The notes under the pieces are model-generated. The model was not told the origin of the DNA. It saw only the letters and a program-made list of their open reading frames with translations, and did not search any database. 24,279 nt of DNA from a virus (lineage: Duplodnaviria; Caudoviricetes): positions 1 through 24,279 of the IMG/VR virus record IMGVR_UViG_3300020436_000094, one strand, 5' to 3'. Below are positions 4,623-19,452 of the stretch, one piece after another (the stretch's first letter is position 1; the number at the start of each line of letters is the position of its first letter). The position numbers were made by a program, and so were the translations under genes.

Positions 4623-6336
4623 TGTTTAATACCTCCATCATTTCTTCGGGTGACATTTCTGGTTGACCATTGGCTTGTGTTGGATTTGCCATTGGGTTTT
4701 GTTGTTGTTGCATTGGGTTAGTTGTTTGTTCTTGTTGTTGTCTCAACATATCCATGTTTAGGATATCTTCAGGTAATTCATCGAATGACTCAAAGATTCT
4801 TTCTACAAATTTAATTGGGTCAATAGCTGCTGCAACTTGCGGCATATTACCAATTACATTTACAATTTGCATAAGTTTGTTAAAGTTTGTCATTTTAAGA
4901 ACTTTGCCAGATATACCTCTGACTGTAATTCTAGCTTCTCTAATAATATCCATGCGTTCATTGAAAGATAACCCAAGCAATTGCTTTATTGGATTGTCTT
5001 CATCTTGTGTGTACATAGGCTCATGTGATATATCATCTATGTAAATTAGCTCCGTATGCAATATCATTTCCAAGGAGGGTTCGATAATACTACGTTCTAT
5101 TTCACTAGCAATATCAGTAAAGAAGCTAGCAGTTTCTTGTGACTTCTGACTTATTTCTTGTGCTGTAGGTCTTCCTTTACTTGTTGGTTGTCCTTGAAAA
5201 AACTCGTTTTGAAATGACCTATTTTGTATTAATCTATCTATAACAAATAATAAATTTGTTGCATTAGGATTTAAGTTTTGATTGTACACTTGGTTTATTG
5301 TATTAGGTGCAGTTACTGGATACAAACGTCCTGGAGTAATAGAGCCAAACAAATGAGCTTTACCACTCTCTACATTTGTAGAAACTAATTCGTATACTCC
5401 TAATGTAGACATACGAAATGCATCTAATAATAAATTCATACTTTCTACGTAAGACGATAGTAGACTTCTTAATTTTGATATATAACCTCTACCATAACGT
5501 CCTTGTAAAACTTTCATTGGGAATCCACATATATATGGGAATCTACCATTTGGTAAATTATTTTTACCATAATAAACAACTGTGTCACTACCTGCTATAA
5601 TAAAATGTACGTTACGGTCTAACACAGCTCCACGTTTGTCTGAAATATATTTTGCATATACATAACATAATTTAACTTGTGATAAATGATTTTCTTCTTG
5701 GTCTCCATTATACATCATGCTTCGCATTACTTTGTTTGTATTGGTCCAACCATTAACTCTAGCTAATCTTTCATAGTCAGCTAAACTAACGGTCTTCATC
5801 TCTATAATATAATTATCACCATTAGGGTCTAGCATAATGTTAAATGGATTAATAGCATTTACAGAAGTTCTACCCATAATCTCGGTTTGTTCTTCTATTT
5901 CTCCGCTTTCTTCATTTACTCTTGGAAAAGTTTGTTCGTCATATGTATATCTAATTTTTGTATAATATGGACTTGTTAACAAAGAAAATTTTAGTGCATC
6001 TCCAAATATTAATGGGAACTTATTGTTTGATAAAACTTGTTGTAGTAATTTATTTAATGCACCTTGGTATCCTTTGTTAGGATGTTCTATTGTAAAATAT
6101 TTATTATCAGTTGACATTAAGATACGTACAAAGAAGTTAGATAATCTAACAACTAAGTTATCAACTACTGGGTCTTTAATCTTTGTTTGCCAATCTAGTT
6201 TATTGTCAAAGTTATATTCATCCATATAAAAACGCATGTTCTCACGCCACTCTTGTGAGTTTTGTGTAAACACTGGTTCTGCTTGATTTTTTATGTAGTT
6301 GAAAAAACTTAATATTATTTCTGGTTTTACACTCAA
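4591..6336 (-). CDS. Portal protein
   Basis: 581 aa directly after TerL. INPFNIMLDP, YGRGYI and RPTAQEI motifs and a Q/P/M-rich C-terminal tail fit P22/N4-like portals. Confidence 0.88.
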   Translation of the reverse strand: MSVKPEIILSFFNYIKNQAEPVFTQNSQEWRENMRFYMDEYNFDNKLDWQTKIKDPVVDNLVVRLSNFFVRILMSTDNKYFTIEHPNKGYQGALNKLLQQVLSNNKFPLIFGDALKFSLLTSPYYTKIRYTYDEQTFPRVNEESGEIEEQTEIMGRTSVNAINPFNIMLDPNGDNYIIEMKTVSLADYERLARVNGWTNTNKVMRSMMYNGDQEENHLSQVKLCYVYAKYISDKRGAVLDRNVHFIIAGSDTVVYYGKNNLPNGRFPYICGFPMKVLQGRYGRGYISKLRSLLSSYVESMNLLLDAFRMSTLGVYELVSTNVESGKAHLFGSITPGRLYPVTAPNTINQVYNQNLNPNATNLLFVIDRLIQNRSFQNEFFQGQPTSKGRPTAQEISQKSQETASFFTDIASEIERSIIEPSLEMILHTELIYIDDISHEPMYTQDEDNPIKQLLGLSFNERMDIIREARITVRGISGKVLKMTNFNKLMQIVNVIGNMPQVAAAIDPIKFVERIFESFDELPEDILNMDMLRQQQEQTTNPMQQQQNPMANPTQANGQPEMSPEEMMEVLNNVRRNTTEQQ

Positions 6337-7847
6337 TTTAATGTCCTGCCTCTTTCTCCAAACTTCATATCAAAATATTCGGGCTCATTCATTGGAATAT
6401 CATCTGTATCAACTAATCGTTTAGATATGTAATACAAACCCAACTTAAATGCATCAGATATGTGTTCGTAGTATTTATCTCGTTTCGGTATACCATTGTC
6501 GTCTCTTGTATAATTTGATAATGTTTCACAAAGAAGTTGTGCGTGTTTAGAATCTATTTGTATTCTAGGTACACCTTCTGCTAATATTTTTAATTCTTCA
6601 TTAGCTAACACTACACTAGTATCCCTCTTTACATACACTACATCTGTTTGCAATCCTTTGTTTTCAAATATCATTGCACTCGTGTTAGGAGATACGTCAT
6701 ACTTTCTATTTGCGTCGTGTGGTAACAAATCCATTGTATTTAATAACTTTGGAAATGTTTCTGTTTGTTGTACAGTTACTTGGTCTATAAAATCTGTTAA
6801 CTGTATATTTTTACCTAATACTGCCATCAGTATATTCTTACGCCCTACTTTGTCTACTTGAAAAATTACACAAGCAGGTCTTGAATATCCTAAGTCCCAG
6901 GCTCTCCATGCTGTACGTAGTGGGTCATATTGTTCTGTAAGATTATCTACTACGTGCATTTCGTTAAAGTCTGGATACACTATTGGACCTTTAGGTTGCA
7001 GTTGAAACTTACCGCCTTCACTAAATCTCCAATGCATTGCAGTTTCTGTAAATCTTTTTTTGTATCTTTCTATCTCTTCTTTTTCTAGAGATAAATTATC
7101 GTATACATCTATAAAATGAAAACTTGTATCTTTGTCGTCTTCTTGTCGTTTGTATATGTCTTGTGGTATATAATTGCTTGTTGCGTCTTCTACAATAAAA
7201 CTCATAATCATTTTGCCAGACTTTCTTAATAGTCTAGCTAATATTTCATCATGCATGTTTTGTGGTGGACATTCGTCAAACCAGCAGAAATCAATACCAG
7301 ATGCTTGTAGGTTTTGCGTTTTCATTTCAGCTGACTTAAATTCTAAGATTGTACCATCCCAAAATTTTACGAAGTCTAAACATCTGTTTTTACCCCAAGC
7401 TACTTTGCCACCACGTTTCTCTATACTTTCAATTGACGGTAGTAATCCTATATCATTAGGCGTATCAGTAGAAAAAAGGTGAACCTGACTAGACGTCCTT
7501 TGAATATCAAAAGAGGGACTAAATGCCCATATAATCCTATTGCCATATTTTGGCTTGTGTATTTCATACTGTGGATGCCATCCTATTACATTGTAAGCTG
7601 TAACAGCAGCACTACAATATGACTTACCGCTAGAATTATTACCGTGTACGTACACACTAAAGTTATTATCGTCAAGTATGGGTTTTTGTGCAGGGTATGG
7701 ACGAAAGAAGAAAAGGTTGCCATACCAGTATAACAACTCTGCTTTAATATTTTTATCAAATTTTGCAAACTCTTCCTCTGTCATGTTATGTACTTTGTGC
7801 CACAAAGCTAACATTTTTTTGTCCTTATACCACCAGTCTCTTATCAT
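6333..7847 (-). CDS. terL: Terminase large subunit
   Basis: Walker A GNNSSGKS, Walker B FCWFDEC, RNase H-like nuclease motifs AWDLG and HISDA. Confidence 0.93.
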   Translation of the reverse strand: MIRDWWYKDKKMLALWHKVHNMTEEEFAKFDKNIKAELLYWYGNLFFFRPYPAQKPILDDNNFSVYVHGNNSSGKSYCSAAVTAYNVIGWHPQYEIHKPKYGNRIIWAFSPSFDIQRTSSQVHLFSTDTPNDIGLLPSIESIEKRGGKVAWGKNRCLDFVKFWDGTILEFKSAEMKTQNLQASGIDFCWFDECPPQNMHDEILARLLRKSGKMIMSFIVEDATSNYIPQDIYKRQEDDKDTSFHFIDVYDNLSLEKEEIERYKKRFTETAMHWRFSEGGKFQLQPKGPIVYPDFNEMHVVDNLTEQYDPLRTAWRAWDLGYSRPACVIFQVDKVGRKNILMAVLGKNIQLTDFIDQVTVQQTETFPKLLNTMDLLPHDANRKYDVSPNTSAMIFENKGLQTDVVYVKRDTSVVLANEELKILAEGVPRIQIDSKHAQLLCETLSNYTRDDNGIPKRDKYYEHISDAFKLGLYYISKRLVDTDDIPMNEPEYFDMKFGERGRTLN

Positions 7848-8104
7848 ATAATTGTTATAACTCCAAACAATAACGTTTGTATTATTATGTGTAATATGTT
7901 AATTCTACTAAACAGGTTGTTTGGCTGCAAGTCTCCTTGCCTTCGCCACAACCTATCTAGCAATAACTTAATTTGATGAATGTACATAAATTTCGTTTTT
8001 TCCTTTGTGCCCTTTGATATACTCTCAATTGGGCAGCTCTGATATTTTTCATACCTACCTCCCTGTTCTTGTAACTCATGAACTATGAGAGGCTTTTTAT
8101 CCAT
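7844..8104 (-). CDS. Hypothetical protein with C-terminal hydrophobic helix
   Basis: 86-aa ORF with ATGA coupling to terL; C-terminal ILHIIIQTLLFGVITII. Confidence 0.6.
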   Translation of the reverse strand: MDKKPLIVHELQEQGGRYEKYQSCPIESISKGTKEKTKFMYIHQIKLLLDRLWRRQGDLQPNNLFSRINILHIIIQTLLFGVITII

Positions 8105-8117
8105 GCCTTATGGAATG

Positions 8118-8339
8118 TTAATAACTATTTAACTTATCCCATGCTTTATCATGCATATTAATACATGCTTTATAACTTTGTTTCTGATATGCCCAGCACT
8201 CTACTTTATTTTCTGCATTACTACAGTCGGGTGCTTGTGGACACTCAGGCTTTACAAATTTTACTTTGCTACTCAATATCGAACAGCCACTAAGGCTTAT
8301 CGAGATAATCGTTAGCATTATCAATTTTTTTAACTGCAT
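8118..8339 (-). CDS. Lipoprotein, putative outer-membrane spanin (Rz1-like)
   Basis: Signal peptide with lipobox LSG|C. Pro/Cys-rich mature part (KPECPQAPDC). Overlaps the 3' end of the upstream gene. Confidence 0.65.
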   Translation of the reverse strand: MQLKKLIMLTIISISLSGCSILSSKVKFVKPECPQAPDCSNAENKVECWAYQKQSYKACINMHDKAWDKLNSY

Positions 8340-8490
8340 CTTTTTTTGCTTGTAACTCCATTGTCTTTACCCAAACTTCATGTTTGGCAGACTTTAATTC
8401 TATATCTTTTTTATCCTGACCACGTTTACTCCACCAGCCAAATAAAAATTTAGATATAGATGGAACTATTTTTAGCAACCACCAAGGCAT
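8290..8490 (-). CDS. Small membrane-associated coiled-coil protein, putative inner-membrane spanin
   Basis: N-terminal hydrophobic/amphipathic segment followed by a charged helix. Its 3' 50 nt overlap the lipoprotein gene, as in overlapped spanin pairs. Confidence 0.5.
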   Translation of the reverse strand: MPWWLLKIVPSISKFLFGWWSKRGQDKKDIELKSAKHEVWVKTMELQAKKDAVKKIDNANDYLDKP

Positions 8491-8628
8491 CTATCCCATC
8501 CTCTTCTTTGATTTTTTAATTTTATTTTTTAATGCTGGTGGCAATGTTTTTTGTTTTGCTGTTAGCATACCATTCTTCTTCTTTGGTCTCCCTTTTTTAC
8601 TTCCGTATGTTCCTTTACCCATTGGCAT
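8491..8628 (-). CDS. Small highly basic protein (45 aa)
   Basis: Manual translation: MPMGKGTYGSKKGRPKKKNGMLTAKQKTLPPALKNKIKKSKKRMG. GGAGG SD; the stop abuts the next ATG. No acidic residues. Confidence 0.85.
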   Translation of the reverse strand: MPMGKGTYGSKKGRPKKKNGMLTAKQKTLPPALKNKIKKSKKRMG

Positions 8629-8642
8629 AATTATATCCTCCG

Positions 8643-8945
8643 TTATGCTTTATTAGATTTTTTCTTTTTATGTCTTGCTGCAAAAGCTCTAGCTGCTTCT
8701 TTACTTCCAAATCCCCATGCTTTCAAAGCAAGTTTTAATCTCGTTGGTCTACCCTTAGAATCTTTGAGTGCACCTGCCATACCACCAAATCTAGCAGCAA
8801 AGCTAACACGTCTAGGGTTTGTACCAGATTTTACTGGTGCTTTTAGGTTAGAACCTTCTGCTCTAGCACTAGCTCTACCCTTAGCATTTAATCCACCTTT
8901 AGGATTTTTTCCCTCTTTTCTTTGCCACGCTGGTGTTTTTGCCAT
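8643..8945 (-). CDS. Basic protein, DUF6321-like
   Basis: AWQRKEGKNPKGGLNAKGRAS...RRVSFAARFGGM...LKAWG matches the recalled DUF6321 phage family. AAGGAG SD. Confidence 0.85.
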   Translation of the reverse strand: MAKTPAWQRKEGKNPKGGLNAKGRASARAEGSNLKAPVKSGTNPRRVSFAARFGGMAGALKDSKGRPTRLKLALKAWGFGSKEAARAFAARHKKKKSNKA

Positions 8946-9072
8946 GCAATGTCTCCTTTTTCTTTACTACCTTGTTACTTTCTACCCATGCTGGTAAATA
9001 TCTACCTTCTCGCATAAGATGTTTTGATTCTGCGTCCTTATGTACGTTTAATTTATTGGATTTTTTCTCCAT
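8899..9072 (-). CDS. Small basic hypothetical protein (57 aa)
   Basis: Manual translation: MEKKSNKLNVHKDAESKHLMREGRYLPAWVESNKVVKKKETLHGKNTSVAKKRGKKS. Fills the 107-nt gap between track ORFs and overlaps both. Confidence 0.5.
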   Translation of the reverse strand: MEKKSNKLNVHKDAESKHLMREGRYLPAWVESNKVVKKKETLHGKNTSVAKKRGKKS

Positions 9073-9538
9073 ATTCTTCCCACGCCTCGTCTTGTAGAGA
9101 TTCTATTGCTTTATTTATATAATTTTGTGTTTGTTCTTGTCCAGTAGACGTTAAACTAGCACGTAACTGGTCTTTGAGTACAGTTAATTTTAATTTATAA
9201 TACTGAATCACTAACCTATCGTCGTTTTGACTGGTCGCTTGTTTAATTTTTGCATCTAATTCTTGTAATGCTGTCTCATATCTTTGGAATATAGTAGAAC
9301 TAAAGTCGCCATCTGCAAAAGATTTAACAGTATCCTCTACTTTTGACATAAATATCTTATATGTTTCAGAATTTTTACAGGAATCTAGTATATTCTTGAC
9401 TGTTTTGTGGTCAATCTTCAGTTCTCTGCCCGTAGCTCGTAAAACCCAGCCATTTGAGTAACAACTTTCAAGGAATTTCCACATTTTCTTGTTATAATCT
9501 ACTTCTTCAGGAAATAACTGGTTTAATTTATTGTTCAT
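9053..9538 (-). CDS. HTH + coiled-coil protein, probable terminase small subunit with a sigma-region-4-like HTH
   Basis: HTH GWVLRATGRELKIDHKTVKNIL followed by long helices. Size and position upstream of terL fit TerS. Confidence 0.55.
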   Translation of the reverse strand: MNNKLNQLFPEEVDYNKKMWKFLESCYSNGWVLRATGRELKIDHKTVKNILDSCKNSETYKIFMSKVEDTVKSFADGDFSSTIFQRYETALQELDAKIKQATSQNDDRLVIQYYKLKLTVLKDQLRASLTSTGQEQTQNYINKAIESLQDEAWEEYGEKIQ

Positions 9539-9761
9539 AACTTATTTGTGCCTCCCTTTTGCTTTCTCTGTTACGTCTCTCACGGTATTTACCAATATAT
9601 TTTGATACACACCACTTATAGTCGTTTGGCATAACATTCTCTTCAAGTATGTAAAGACACGCATCATGTAAAATATCCTCGCAGTCAATCTTAGTTATAC
9701 CATACTTTGCTCCGTTTAGCAAACAATAATCCTTTAGCTCTAGATATTGCATTTCTGTCAT
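9528..9761 (-). CDS. Small protein resembling sigma-70/ECF region 2
   Basis: DCEDILHDACLYILE...KW....YIGKYRERRNR resembles DAEDLxQExFL...W.......DYxRRxxR. Start moved to ATG 9761 (AGGGG SD; the track start at 9806 lies inside the promoter). Confidence 0.55.
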   Translation of the reverse strand: MTEMQYLELKDYCLLNGAKYGITKIDCEDILHDACLYILEENVMPNDYKWCVSKYIGKYRERRNRESKREAQISYEQ

Positions 9762-9782: not shown

Positions 9783-9813
9783 AGTATAAATAGCCCAGAA
9801 AGCCATTTGTCAA
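9783..9813 (-). promoter_or_regulatory. Putative leftward (late operon) sigma70-type promoter with a 19-bp spacer
   Basis: Minus strand TTGACA (9813-9808), 19 nt, TATACT (9788-9783). Confidence 0.45.
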
Positions 9814-10120
9814 GTTTTATTTATTATCTAGGTAAATACAGCACTATATGTGCTTTAGAATACCTTATACCAGTATTCTTTGGTAACTAATAACTACAAT
9901 TGGGTGAGCATTGGGCGGCGTTGTAAGTGCCCGTAACTATTACATATTTATAATAACAATAAATACTTGCAGTTTTTATGAGGAGAGTTGGGAAATCAAC
10001 CCATGTACTTTTATTAGGGGTGTGGGCGGTTGTGGCAACCTAGGGGGGGTCTACAAAAGGCAAAAAAAATTTACACAAAAACGGCAGACAAGGTTTATAT
10101 ATTCATTATAGAAATAATTA

Positions 10121-10137
10121 TGCGGGAATATCCCGCA
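10121..10137. promoter_or_regulatory. 17-bp palindrome copy 1 (TGCGGGA-ATA-TCCCGCA)
   Basis: Perfect 7-bp inverted repeat ending 23 nt upstream of a -35 box; one of six copies. Confidence 0.8.
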
Positions 10138-10188: not shown

Positions 10189-10218
10189 AATAGAGTGAAT
10201 AAGTTAGTAGGAGAGAAC

Positions 10219-10782
10219 ATGAAAATAAACGATTACAAAACAGTAATTAAAGGTCTTGTCAAAGGCGACGACCTTTTCCAATCTAACTTTAAGAACCTAA
10301 GAGGTTTAATGGTTCAGGATTCAAAATTCCTAGGAGATAAAAAATATAATCTATCTCAAAAGACTAGGGATTGGAATCCAGCAACTTTGGACCTTGTTAA
10401 ATCTTGGAATGTATCAGAAAGATATTACGATACAGTATCAAGAGCTTATCGTTCATCTACTAAGCTAGATAGCAATGGTAAGTTAAATAAAAAGGGAATG
10501 GCACTTTCGGCAAAGTCTATTCAAAATCTAGGACTTACCGAAGAGGCTAAAAAGTCAGGCTGGAAAGCTAAAGATTCTAGCCCAGCAAAGCCCAAAGCTA
10601 AAAAGGTTTTGTCTAATGATGAAAAATTAAGCCTTATTGGTTTACTTTTCTCAGACTTAACCAAAGATAAATTCAGACCTACAGAAGATAGACTGAATTT
10701 TCTTAGGGATAAAATCGAAAGTTATGAAATAGCTATTCAACATATCCCAGCAACTAAAACAGCCATAGCCGGCAAAAACTAA
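10219..10782 (+). CDS. Basic hypothetical protein, stand-alone early gene
   Basis: ATG 10219 follows AGGAGA (track start GTG 10195). Lys-rich, with its own promoter and terminator. Confidence 0.85.
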   Translation: MKINDYKTVIKGLVKGDDLFQSNFKNLRGLMVQDSKFLGDKKYNLSQKTRDWNPATLDLVKSWNVSERYYDTVSRAYRSSTKLDSNGKLNKKGMALSAKSIQNLGLTEEAKKSGWKAKDSSPAKPKAKKVLSNDEKLSLIGLLFSDLTKDKFRPTEDRLNFLRDKIESYEIAIQHIPATKTAIAGKN

Positions 10783-10798
10783 AAAATCAAAAACAAAA

Positions 10799-10814
10799 TC
10801 TAACTTATTCACAA
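10799..10814 (+). repeat. 16-bp direct repeat copy A, TCTAACTTATTCACAA (contains DnaA-box-like TTATTCACA)
   Basis: Identical to 21977-21992. Confidence 0.8.
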
Positions 10815-10837
10815 CCCCCGCAAGGGGGTTTTTTTTT
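10813..10837 (+). terminator. Rho-independent terminator
   Basis: AACCCCC-GCAA-GGGGGTT hairpin (GNRA loop) running into a 9-T tract. Confidence 0.93.
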
Positions 10838-17131: not shown

Positions 17132-17339
17132 ATTTATTGATGATGTAACAGCCCAGATTATGACTGGTTTGGAGTATGATAAACGAGGTTCTTCTATTAA
17201 ATATAAATTAGAAGAACACATTGTTAGGAGAATATTACAACGTAATTTAGATGCGTTATTTAAGGAGTTAGAATTACATAAGGAAGTGACAGATGACATA
17301 CAAGGAACGCAAACAGAAGCACCCCAACCATCCAGATAA
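17121..17339 (+). CDS. Hypothetical protein
   Basis: GGAGG SD; bridges primase and polymerase. Confidence 0.65.
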   Translation: MISKFIDDVTAQIMTGLEYDKRGSSIKYKLEEHIVRRILQRNLDALFKELELHKEVTDDIQGTQTEAPQPSR

Positions 17340-19452
17340 TTGTTTGAAATGTGGGTTGTTCGAGAATTGTAAAAGTTATAAACTAAAATATAAAAAAGTA
17401 CAAACTGGTAGTAAGACTGTATTGTTTGTGGTAGACACTCCATCACAGTTATACGACCATACAGGTTCTATGAAAAATAGTAAACTGTTAAACACATTAG
17501 AATTACTATCAAAAGATTGGCTACAAGAATTTAATGTATATGTTACTCATGCTGTAAAGTGTCGACAAGCAGAGGGTACTATAAAAATAGCAGCAATACG
17601 TCAATGCAATATTTATTTAATAGATGATATTAGTAAAATAAAACCTGATGTTGTAATAACATTGGGCGACACGGCAAAGAAAGCAATACAGGAATCTTGC
17701 GGGAGTTTCCCGCAAAATATCCAGGTACATAATGCTCCGTCAATAGTTGTTGATAATCAGGCAACCGTTACGGAGGTGTTGAACAGAGTGTGGCATGAGT
17801 TACACAAAGTGCTTTTACCGATACCTTTAACTACAAATTTGTCGAGGGTATTGTTGCATGCAGCTAAAACAAAGTTAATAGCGTTAGACTTTGAGTGGAA
17901 TCCTGATACAGGTATAGCCCACTCAGTAGGATTAGCGGCAGGTAAGGTAGCAGGTGGTTTTGTATTAGATAGTCACACTGAGAAGGCAATAGAGAATATA
18001 CTAGTTGATGAATCTATGACTGTTGTTGGGCACAACATAGCGGAAGATGTCCGACGAGTTATTGATAAATTAGGTGCACGTATTCGTTGTCAGTTCATAG
18101 ACACGCTGTTATTAAAACGACAGTTAGTGTTTAATCTACGGCAAGGTGGTCTCAAATACTTTGCGGAGCGTTATCTACTGTTAGAAGAGTATTGGAAAGA
18201 TATAACTGTGGATGATTTCAGTGCACCATCCCCCAAGCTATTAAAATATACTGGTGGTGATGCGTGGGCTACCTTATCTTTGTATAATAAATTTAAGCAA
18301 GACTTTAAGAATGAGTGGAAACATATGGAAAATGCTCGTGCCATTGATATGGATATGATTTTACCAGTGGCTTACATGGTACATGGTGGTATTAAAATAG
18401 ACAAACAAAAATTAAAAAAACAATTAACATCATTAAAATTAAAAGAGAACAAGTTGTTAAGTGAGTTTGAAACAAAACACAAAATCAACCCCGCAAGTCC
18501 TTTACAAGTATTAGAGTTTCTTAAAAAACGTAAACATAAAATTAAAAGCACAGGTATAGATGCACTTAGTAAATTGAATGATGAAGTTGTAGATAAGTTA
18601 ATTGAGTATAGAAAAATTAGTAAACTAACTACAACATACTTAGATAAGTTAGCAGACATGGCTGATGATAAAGATTTAATACACTGTAATTTACACTTAG
18701 CAAATACAATAACGGGTCGTATGAGTTCGAGCAACCCTAACATGCAAAATATTCCACCTGATGTACGACCCATTTTTGCTAGTGTGTTTGGGCAAGACGG
18801 TAATTTAGTAACAGTGGATGCTAGTCAAAGTGAGCTACGTTGTTTAGCATACCTAAGTAAAAGTAAATATTTAATTGACTCATACAATGAAGGTACTGAC
18901 ATGCATAGCTTGGTATCTAAGTTAGCAGGTATAAGTAGAAAAAATGCTAAAGTTCTAAACTTTGCATTTGTATATGGTTCATCAGAGTTTGGATTAAAGA
19001 ATCAATTAGTTAAAGCAGGTGTCGAAATGTCTAAGGCGGATACGGTAGTAGGAAGTTTTATTGATACTATGGACAAGTTAGGTATACGTGAGTATCAGCA
19101 GAAGCTACTTGACAAGGCAAAGAAATTGAATTATATTTATTCTCCATATGGTCGTGTTGGTACTAGACTTAATCCTACTCAAGTAGTAAATTTTCCTATT
19201 CAATCGTTTAGTGCTGACTTAAATAAGATGAGAATTATTTATGTATTTAATAGACTTCGAGAGGAGAAACTTATATCACGTATATGGTTAGAGTTTCATG
19301 ATGCTATGGAGTTAGACATATATAAACCAGAACAAAAACAAGTTTATGATATTATAAACGAATTAGATTTAACAATACCCGATGTATTAAACAAAGGTAT
19401 TGAAATACAACTGCCTTTGGATGTCAAAGAGAATGGCGTCAACTGGCAATAG
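17293..19452 (+). CDS. polA: Family A DNA polymerase with N-terminal family-4 uracil-DNA-glycosylase-like domain and 3'-5' exonuclease
   Basis: UDG4-like CLKC...YVTHAVKC...RQC...KPDVVITLG. Exo I DFE, II HNIAED, III YTGGD. Pol motifs TGRMSS.NPNMQNIP, DASQSELR, RKNAKVLNFAFVYG, FHDA. Confidence 0.95.
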   Translation: MTYKERKQKHPNHPDNCLKCGLFENCKSYKLKYKKVQTGSKTVLFVVDTPSQLYDHTGSMKNSKLLNTLELLSKDWLQEFNVYVTHAVKCRQAEGTIKIAAIRQCNIYLIDDISKIKPDVVITLGDTAKKAIQESCGSFPQNIQVHNAPSIVVDNQATVTEVLNRVWHELHKVLLPIPLTTNLSRVLLHAAKTKLIALDFEWNPDTGIAHSVGLAAGKVAGGFVLDSHTEKAIENILVDESMTVVGHNIAEDVRRVIDKLGARIRCQFIDTLLLKRQLVFNLRQGGLKYFAERYLLLEEYWKDITVDDFSAPSPKLLKYTGGDAWATLSLYNKFKQDFKNEWKHMENARAIDMDMILPVAYMVHGGIKIDKQKLKKQLTSLKLKENKLLSEFETKHKINPASPLQVLEFLKKRKHKIKSTGIDALSKLNDEVVDKLIEYRKISKLTTTYLDKLADMADDKDLIHCNLHLANTITGRMSSSNPNMQNIPPDVRPIFASVFGQDGNLVTVDASQSELRCLAYLSKSKYLIDSYNEGTDMHSLVSKLAGISRKNAKVLNFAFVYGSSEFGLKNQLVKAGVEMSKADTVVGSFIDTMDKLGIREYQQKLLDKAKKLNYIYSPYGRVGTRLNPTQVVNFPIQSFSADLNKMRIIYVFNRLREEKLISRIWLEFHDAMELDIYKPEQKQVYDIINELDLTIPDVLNKGIEIQLPLDVKENGVNWQ
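17698..17714. promoter_or_regulatory. 17-bp palindrome copy 6 (TGCGGGA-GTT-TCCCGCA), intragenic
   Basis: Perfect copy (19 bp with flanks) inside the polymerase gene, within codons SCGSFPQ. Confidence 0.75.

Follow-up and report, generated by a model that had tools for sequence, protein, structure and literature searches.

A free-standing sigma region-2 homologue and a linked promoter element at the head of the late operon of an uncultured marine phage

The window analysed here, a stretch of 24,279 nucleotides (IMG/VR record IMGVR_UViG_3300020436_000094, Caudoviricetes), contains at the head of its late genes a small gene, ORF1, that is by profile and family comparison a free-standing homologue of sigma factor region 2. 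Its promoter carries a conserved element in the spacer that is present in phages with ORF1 and absent from those without, a point beyond the sequence-only reading made earlier of this DNA. The reading preferred here, tentatively and at somewhat less than an even chance, is that ORF1 is a gp55/RsoA-like factor consisting of sigma region 2 only, which would amplify its own late operon, and that its neighbour ORF2 is an ordinary small terminase. The genes concerned are the following.

9528 to 9761, minus strand: ORF1, 77-aa stand-alone sigma region-2 homologue by profile, predicted fold and conserved residues
9528 to 9538, minus strand: 11-nt overlap of the ORF1 stop and the ORF2 start, its frame and length not conserved
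9053 to 9538, minus strand: ORF2, 161 aa, N-terminal helix-turn-helix (HTH) and four long helices, probable small terminase (TerS)
6333 to 7847, minus strand: terminase large subunit (TerL; phrog_2, E 4e-14), in the same operon downstream of ORF1 and ORF2

The window comes from an uncultured phage of ~41 kb and is found in marine sequencing runs. A record of 40,583 bases, 99% complete, contains ORF1 and ORF2 identical to those of the window. Replication genes run rightwards from 10195 and the terminase, portal-like, and capsid genes leftwards from 9761; on the late strand of the 40.6-kb record genes are densely packed in a single run from ORF1 (5.8 kb) to 34.0 kb. No close relative was found among cultured phages, in which TerL, capsid, and polymerase matches reached only 21–28%, and a search found no cultured phage carrying ORF1, ORF2, P0064, or the ORF2 homologue of the distant phage L117. 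GTDB genomes searched for the host also gave no match.

The coordinates and translation of ORF1 are as the sequence-only reading gave them (77 aa, 9528–9761, minus strand). An in-frame ATG at 9806 sits within the promoter spacer and is missing from most close relatives, and 9761 is therefore the likely start. The gene is under purifying selection, with dN of 0.006–0.055 against dS of 0.06–0.84 in 21 pairs from seven close relatives. A profile search of 1.84 billion representatives returned 35 matches, all of 53–134 aa, and none of the 35 was a fused form of region 2 and region 4. The ORF1 of the window alone had no Pfam match, its Pfam and PHROG scans being uninformative, and first, shallow profiles found nothing among PDB sequences. 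Among the 34 relatives scanned (the 35 matches minus the window's own cluster), 13 matched Sigma70_r2 (PF04542), three of them above the Pfam cut-off. Eleven of these 13 matches stop by model position 37 of 71, covering mainly the core-binding half, which places the signal in regions 2.1–2.2. A 50-row ORF1 profile compared with PDB sequences had the ECF factor SigJ as its best match (E 0.0032, profile positions 3–72), and eight of its 13 matches at E up to 10 were ECF sigmas. The ESM Atlas look-alike of ORF1 is a viral 87-aa Sigma70_r2 cluster (0.95). The family profile also aligned with region 2 of the sigmas of phages L124 and L128 (HH-align 73%, E 3e-5), loci that were found using a pattern from the ORF1 family itself. 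The region-2 reading is borne out by the profile and by the Pfam matches of the relatives, above chance at the level of the family only. The two phage loci (L124, 4992–5540; L128, 4977–5516) encode full-length ECF-like sigmas of ~180 aa with an ORF1-like region 2, flanked by a gene that looks NinG-like by eye and by downstream genes.

The AlphaFold model of ORF1 (pLDDT 93.8) consists of three helices, at residues 3–18, 24–41, and 45–75. Its top structural matches are sigma-2 chains (Z 7.0–7.7, rmsd 2.3–4.0, 63–74 residues aligned), as the earlier reading would have it; five of the first six carry sigma titles, and the remaining one is aligned across a residue range identical to that of one of these. 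The margin is modest, with the first unrelated row at Z 6.7 against 7.7 for the best, and Foldseek of the model gave no E below 0.001. The second helix is acidic, with D29 in 50/50 rows, D26 in 46, D33 in 45, and E40 in 43, and the last helix is basic, K54, K58, R60, R63, R65, and R69 being invariant in 24/24 close-family rows. In gp55, according to the accessible text of PMC7892883, the corresponding helix touches the clamp helices through three acidic residues, and its last helix is likewise long. ORF1 shares homologous regions 2.1–2.2 with ECF sigmas (SigJ, SigE, SigH, and SigW, and those of phages L124 and L128), but the linker and region 4 are missing, the region 2.3 loop is shorter, and region 2.4 has diverged. 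Compared with SigJ, ORF1 lacks 3 plus 2 residues in the segment that follows helix 2. The Y48 column of the family is aromatic in 36/50 rows, and the column aligned with Y55, which we take to be the base-reading specificity position of region 2.4, varies (Y, F, T, or H). Promoter melting by ORF1 is doubtful because of the shorter segment and the variable region 2.4 column.

ORF1 is directly upstream of ORF2 in 30 of the 32 IMG/VR loci bearing ORF2 and overlaps it in 26, so the split on which the earlier reading turned is conserved in related phages. In the window the overlap is 11 nt in the +1 frame, as had been described. Among the 30 junctions, 13 are +1 overlaps of 8, 11, or 20 nt, 13 are ATGA overlaps in the other frame, and four are gaps of 98–140 nt; none is in frame. 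The variety of frames and gaps, none of them in frame, indicates two separately translated genes, and a purine-rich, ribosome-binding-like stretch precedes the ORF2 start in the loci shown. In contigs of three independent DNA runs the junction is spanned without any indel, the split being inherited. An RNA run yielded no more than short contig fragments, uninformative about expression or start site. By these sequence comparisons ORF1 is not an ECF sigma, as region 4 is absent, with 0/30 junctions in frame and all 35 homologues short. A context search of distant ORF1 relatives yielded, in addition to the full-length phage sigmas, one informative locus, in phage L117, where a sigma-2-like gene is followed by two genes, an ORF2 homologue, a lysozyme-like gene (by eye), and TerL.

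The promoter upstream of ORF1 has three recognizable parts.

9808 to 9814, minus strand: CTTGACA, sigma70-type -35 element, CTTGAC being invariant in 21 distinct ORF1-bearing promoters and also found in ORF1-less ones
9790 to 9800, minus strand: TTCT-GGG-CTAT (consensus TYCT-N3-CTAT), spacer element, present with ORF1 and absent without it
9783 to 9788, minus strand: TATACT, sigma70-type -10 hexamer, 19 bp from the -35 (18–19 bp in most relatives)

In the window the layout is CTTGACA (9814–9808), 7 nt, TTCT (9800–9797), 3 nt, CTAT (9793–9790), T, and TATACT; a standard promoter scan missed it because only 16–18-bp spacers were allowed. CTTGAC, CTAT, and the first and last T of TYCT do not vary among the 21 distinct ORF1-bearing sequences, unlike neighbouring spacer positions, and this invariance holds although ORF2 identity to the window drops to 45%. 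One ORF1-bearing sequence is without a good -10. The -35 is a plain TTGAC[AT] whether or not the phage has ORF1. Co-occurrence was counted in 49 loci, several of them the same contig or near-identical, comprising 32 viral loci and 17 of 21 metagenome loci (four with too little upstream DNA were dropped), with C or T allowed at the third position of the motif. The full motif is present in 42/45 ORF1-bearing loci; two of the remaining contigs stop short and one has the element without a -35 at that distance, while the spacer element is present in 43/43 ORF1-bearing loci with enough upstream DNA. The motif, which was derived from the same ORF1-bearing sequences, is found in 0/4 ORF1-less loci, which keep CTTGAC[AT] and represent one or two independent losses, and in 0/12 other sigma70-like sites in four genomes. 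Counts of TYCT-N3-CTAT alone in four genomes are 6, 12, 3, and 3, where about 4.5, 4.7, 4.6, and 2.5 are expected; the 12 short elements (~4.7 expected) belong to the first half of contig G001 and are mostly in genes, and the other three genomes are without excess. Behind a -35 the element stands only once per ORF1-bearing genome, and hence no regulon of further late promoters was found in the four genomes. The ORF1 promoter is the probable single start of the structural operon. Four loci (L041, L056, L057, and L089) also have a second, plain sigma70-like promoter without the element, ~108 nt upstream of ORF1 and 60 nt upstream of the element-bearing promoter.

The four ORF1-less loci consist of two from IMG/VR and two from metagenomes. 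One belongs to a nearly complete genome of 41 kb that matches ORF1 nowhere and forms the second half of G001, a contig joining two related phages. In the ORF2 tree the ORF1-less loci are nested within ORF1-bearing branches, by which the absence of ORF1 is a loss, in one or two events. Judged from these sequences ORF1 is dispensable: in one branch both the gene and the element are gone and a plain promoter of sigma70 type remains. In these losses the gene and its promoter may have been exchanged together. ORF1 and two small basic late proteins, one of them DUF5824, are all that two ORF1-bearing genomes share and the ORF1-less one lacks; none is HTH-like, in a region that only one ORF1-less genome covers. 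The joined record itself (G001, 83,747 bases; L064–L068) consists of two related genomes of ~41–43 kb placed one after the other, only one of which has ORF1, and is probably an assembly chimera.

Most plausibly, to judge from its sequence, ORF1 would work like a minimal gp55 or RsoA. On the preferred reading host sigma70 would give priming transcription from TTGACA-N19-TATACT, presumably weak for a spacer that is too long. ORF1 would be made first, and its acidic second helix, homologous to that of sigma-2 and T4 gp55, would dock on the beta-prime clamp helices as theirs does. The long basic third helix would read TYCT-N3-CTAT, the element that co-occurs with the gene, just upstream of the -10, and positive feedback would increase the output of the roughly 28-kb late operon. 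Polymerase binding, element recognition, and the sign of control are steps that we infer for ORF1. Since the sigma70-type -35 and -10 are both kept, repression and activation of the sigma70 holoenzyme fit equally. Over-long promoter spacers usually mean that a helper is needed (MerR-type promoters, Mu Pmom), and positive feedback is favoured for this reason and because the split sigma of Tn916 is self-activating. The available part of the report on Tn916 Sig7–Sig8 describes activation of its own promoter in a positive feedback (10.64898/2026.10.01.756105). A separate region-4 partner other than ORF2 was not found among 52 proteins scanned with Pfam.

Known systems resemble ORF1 in part. T4 gp55, which works with gp33, is likewise a phage late factor with a sigma-2 domain, an acidic clamp helix, and an unusually long last helix, as far as the accessible account goes (PMC7892883). 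Unlike gp55, ORF1 has only 77 aa and lacks the helix-loop-helix and the clamp-binding tail, no gp33-like partner was found for it, its promoter keeps a sigma70-type -35, and its gene is inside the operon that it would control. SigO–RsoA of Bacillus subtilis and Tn916 Sig7–Sig8 also have region 2 in a small protein of its own (10.64898/2026.10.01.756105; PMC8103513; PMC7826278). Both pairs, in the parts of these sources available, require a dedicated region-4 subunit, whereas none was identified for ORF1 and its neighbour is retained without it.

ORF1 might instead be a sigma-2 decoy or negative regulator, displacing host sigmas by blocking the clamp helices or by occupying the spacer element; its target would be host and early transcription or its own promoter, which it would damp. 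This is unlikely, though it carries appreciable weight. The core-binding helix is the best kept part of the protein and the part for melting and specificity is short and variable, the position of ORF1 as the first late gene means that it would accumulate late, and the gene is dispensable, all of which would suit a decoy. A pure decoy, however, leaves the six invariant basic residues of the last helix and the gene-linked promoter element unexplained, and a general block would hit the phage's own late genes, no RNA polymerase having been found among the phage proteins scanned. Another arrangement, for which the chances appear rather low, is that an ORF1-like sigma-2 module sits at the clamp helices and the -35 is read by region 4 of host sigma70 or by the HTH of the small terminase. 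If true, the phages would reprogram host polymerase into a hybrid holoenzyme that serves a single late promoter, formed with a member of a widespread and so far undescribed family of ~80-residue phage proteins.

It is quite unlikely that ORF1 acts after initiation or elsewhere, as an antiterminator on the clamp helices or as an anti-sigma bait, with the element read by another protein. The placement of the element, inside a late promoter between its -35 and -10, is reminiscent of the lambda Q site, and late activators such as RinA reportedly bind upstream of terS. NusG also takes the same clamp-helix site once gp55 leaves, according to the accessible text of PMC7892883. Against another reader of the element, ORF1 and the two small basic late proteins, none of them HTH-like, are the only genes co-absent from the ORF1-less genome.

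The model of the sequence-only reading, a two-subunit sigma made of ORF1 and ORF2 in which the small terminase supplies region 4 through its HTH, appears improbable. ORF2 has the coordinates given for it (161 aa, 9053–9538, minus strand), and its predicted model, a three-helix HTH (helices 15–28, 33–40, and 44–54) followed by four long helices, supports the earlier description of an N-terminal HTH and TerS-like helices. In favour of two subunits are the adjacency and frequent overlap of the genes (30/32 and 26 loci), a distance of 15 bp from CTTGAC to CTAT, which is near the ECF-type spacing, and weak sigma matches of the ORF2 HTH: Sigma70_r4_2 in 13/20 members of the family (best E 0.0028), sigma70-ECF in 10/23 (best E 0.0002), and, for an HTH-only profile against PDB, one sigma chain (SigL region, E 0.95) among kinase noise. 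The HTH, however, also matched HTH_23 in 14/20 members (E 0.0005) and IS21 transposase in 16/23, transposase, invertase, and HTH_23 profiles scoring about as well as sigma or better, and it lacks the arginines of the ECF motif 'SRLxRA'. The resemblance to region 4 is therefore real by eye but not specific, and on sequence the HTH is generic, with neither sigma-4 nor TerS demonstrated. It is also fully conserved in the lineage without ORF1, although a moonlighting TerS would be retained too. The pair is separated by two genes in L117 and by 98–140 nt in four loci, and the -35 is the sigma70 consensus expected of the host. With an unspecific HTH, retention without ORF1, and a plain -35, ORF2 is at best a doubtful region-4 partner.

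ORF2 is more simply a likely small terminase: it has a suitable size and architecture, lies upstream of TerL, has no rival as a TerS candidate, and is fully retained after the loss of ORF1. It is present in both G001 genomes and in G002–G004, and is kept across the clade. Pfam and PHROG scans of ORF2 gave no informative match and no TerS profile. Fold searches with the whole ORF2 model, the HTH not being folded alone, returned generic helical bundles and no TerS or sigma-4 match (Foldseek PDB, VIA wide, BFVD), with a phBC6A51-type protein at E 2–3. The Atlas look-alikes include a putative TerS cluster (0.94), T5 TerS clusters (0.92), and clusters partly labelled sigma-4 or ECF. By HH-align, T5 TerS fits the ORF2 profile slightly better than a phage ECF sigma (1.1% vs 0.2%), neither being significant, and the T5 score, though non-significant, is above 20/20 shuffles. 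ORF2 shares with HTH small terminases such as T5 TerS a length of ~160 aa, an HTH followed by long helices, and a position upstream of TerL; it differs in having no significant profile or fold match and several small genes before TerL. The Kuravirus gene upstream of TerL, also compared with ORF2, gave nothing.

That ORF1 and ORF2 are one sigma-like protein made by a +1 frameshift, or that the split is an assembly error, has next to no probability, since the +1 junction of the window recurs in 13/30 loci but 17/30 are in another frame or gapped, ORF2 has its own ribosome-binding-like stretch, no fused form is known among the profile matches, and the independent assemblies are without indel; as a conserved feature it is refuted.

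Region-2-only factors are known from few systems (T4 gp55, RsoA, and Tn916 Sig8). Split or region-2-only sigmas in print comprise T4 gp55–gp33, SPO1 gp33–34, SigO–RsoA, and Sig7–8 in the accessible portions of PMC7892883, PMC8103513, PMC7826278, and 10.64898/2026.10.01.756105. The portion of PMC13627669 available describes Francisella MtvS1-2 as possibly a split sigma, and that of PMC7826278 mentions a Bacillus phage sigma with region 2 alone. A search of the openly accessible literature found no paper on the ORF1 family among the results listed. The family is compact and partner-less, consists of at least 35 clusters at 50% identity, and has both a promoter element as its candidate target and a lineage that is a natural knock-out. 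With it one can test directly what a sigma-2 domain by itself does on polymerase, that is, whether it redirects, activates, or blocks it. It also suggests that surveys demanding both regions 2 and 4, as described in the accessible part of PMC7826278, overlook such phage regulators.

Several other features of the genome were recorded. The interval between ORF2 and TerL (7844–8945 in the window) is a variable cassette, found in the same place in L012, L059, and L062, with a spanin-like lipoprotein pair, DUF6321, and short very basic proteins that differ among close relatives. The first early gene (10195–10782 in the window; also in L008, L010, L016, and L017) is strongly variable in length (176–288 aa) and sequence, and neither it nor its counterparts had a family match. 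Terminator-like hairpins are located in the divergent intergenic region (10121–10137, minus strand) and after the first early gene (10813–10830, plus strand). The gene at 17293–19452 encodes a DNA polymerase of family A whose N-terminal domain resembles a uracil-DNA glycosylase (Pfam UDG, E 9e-7).
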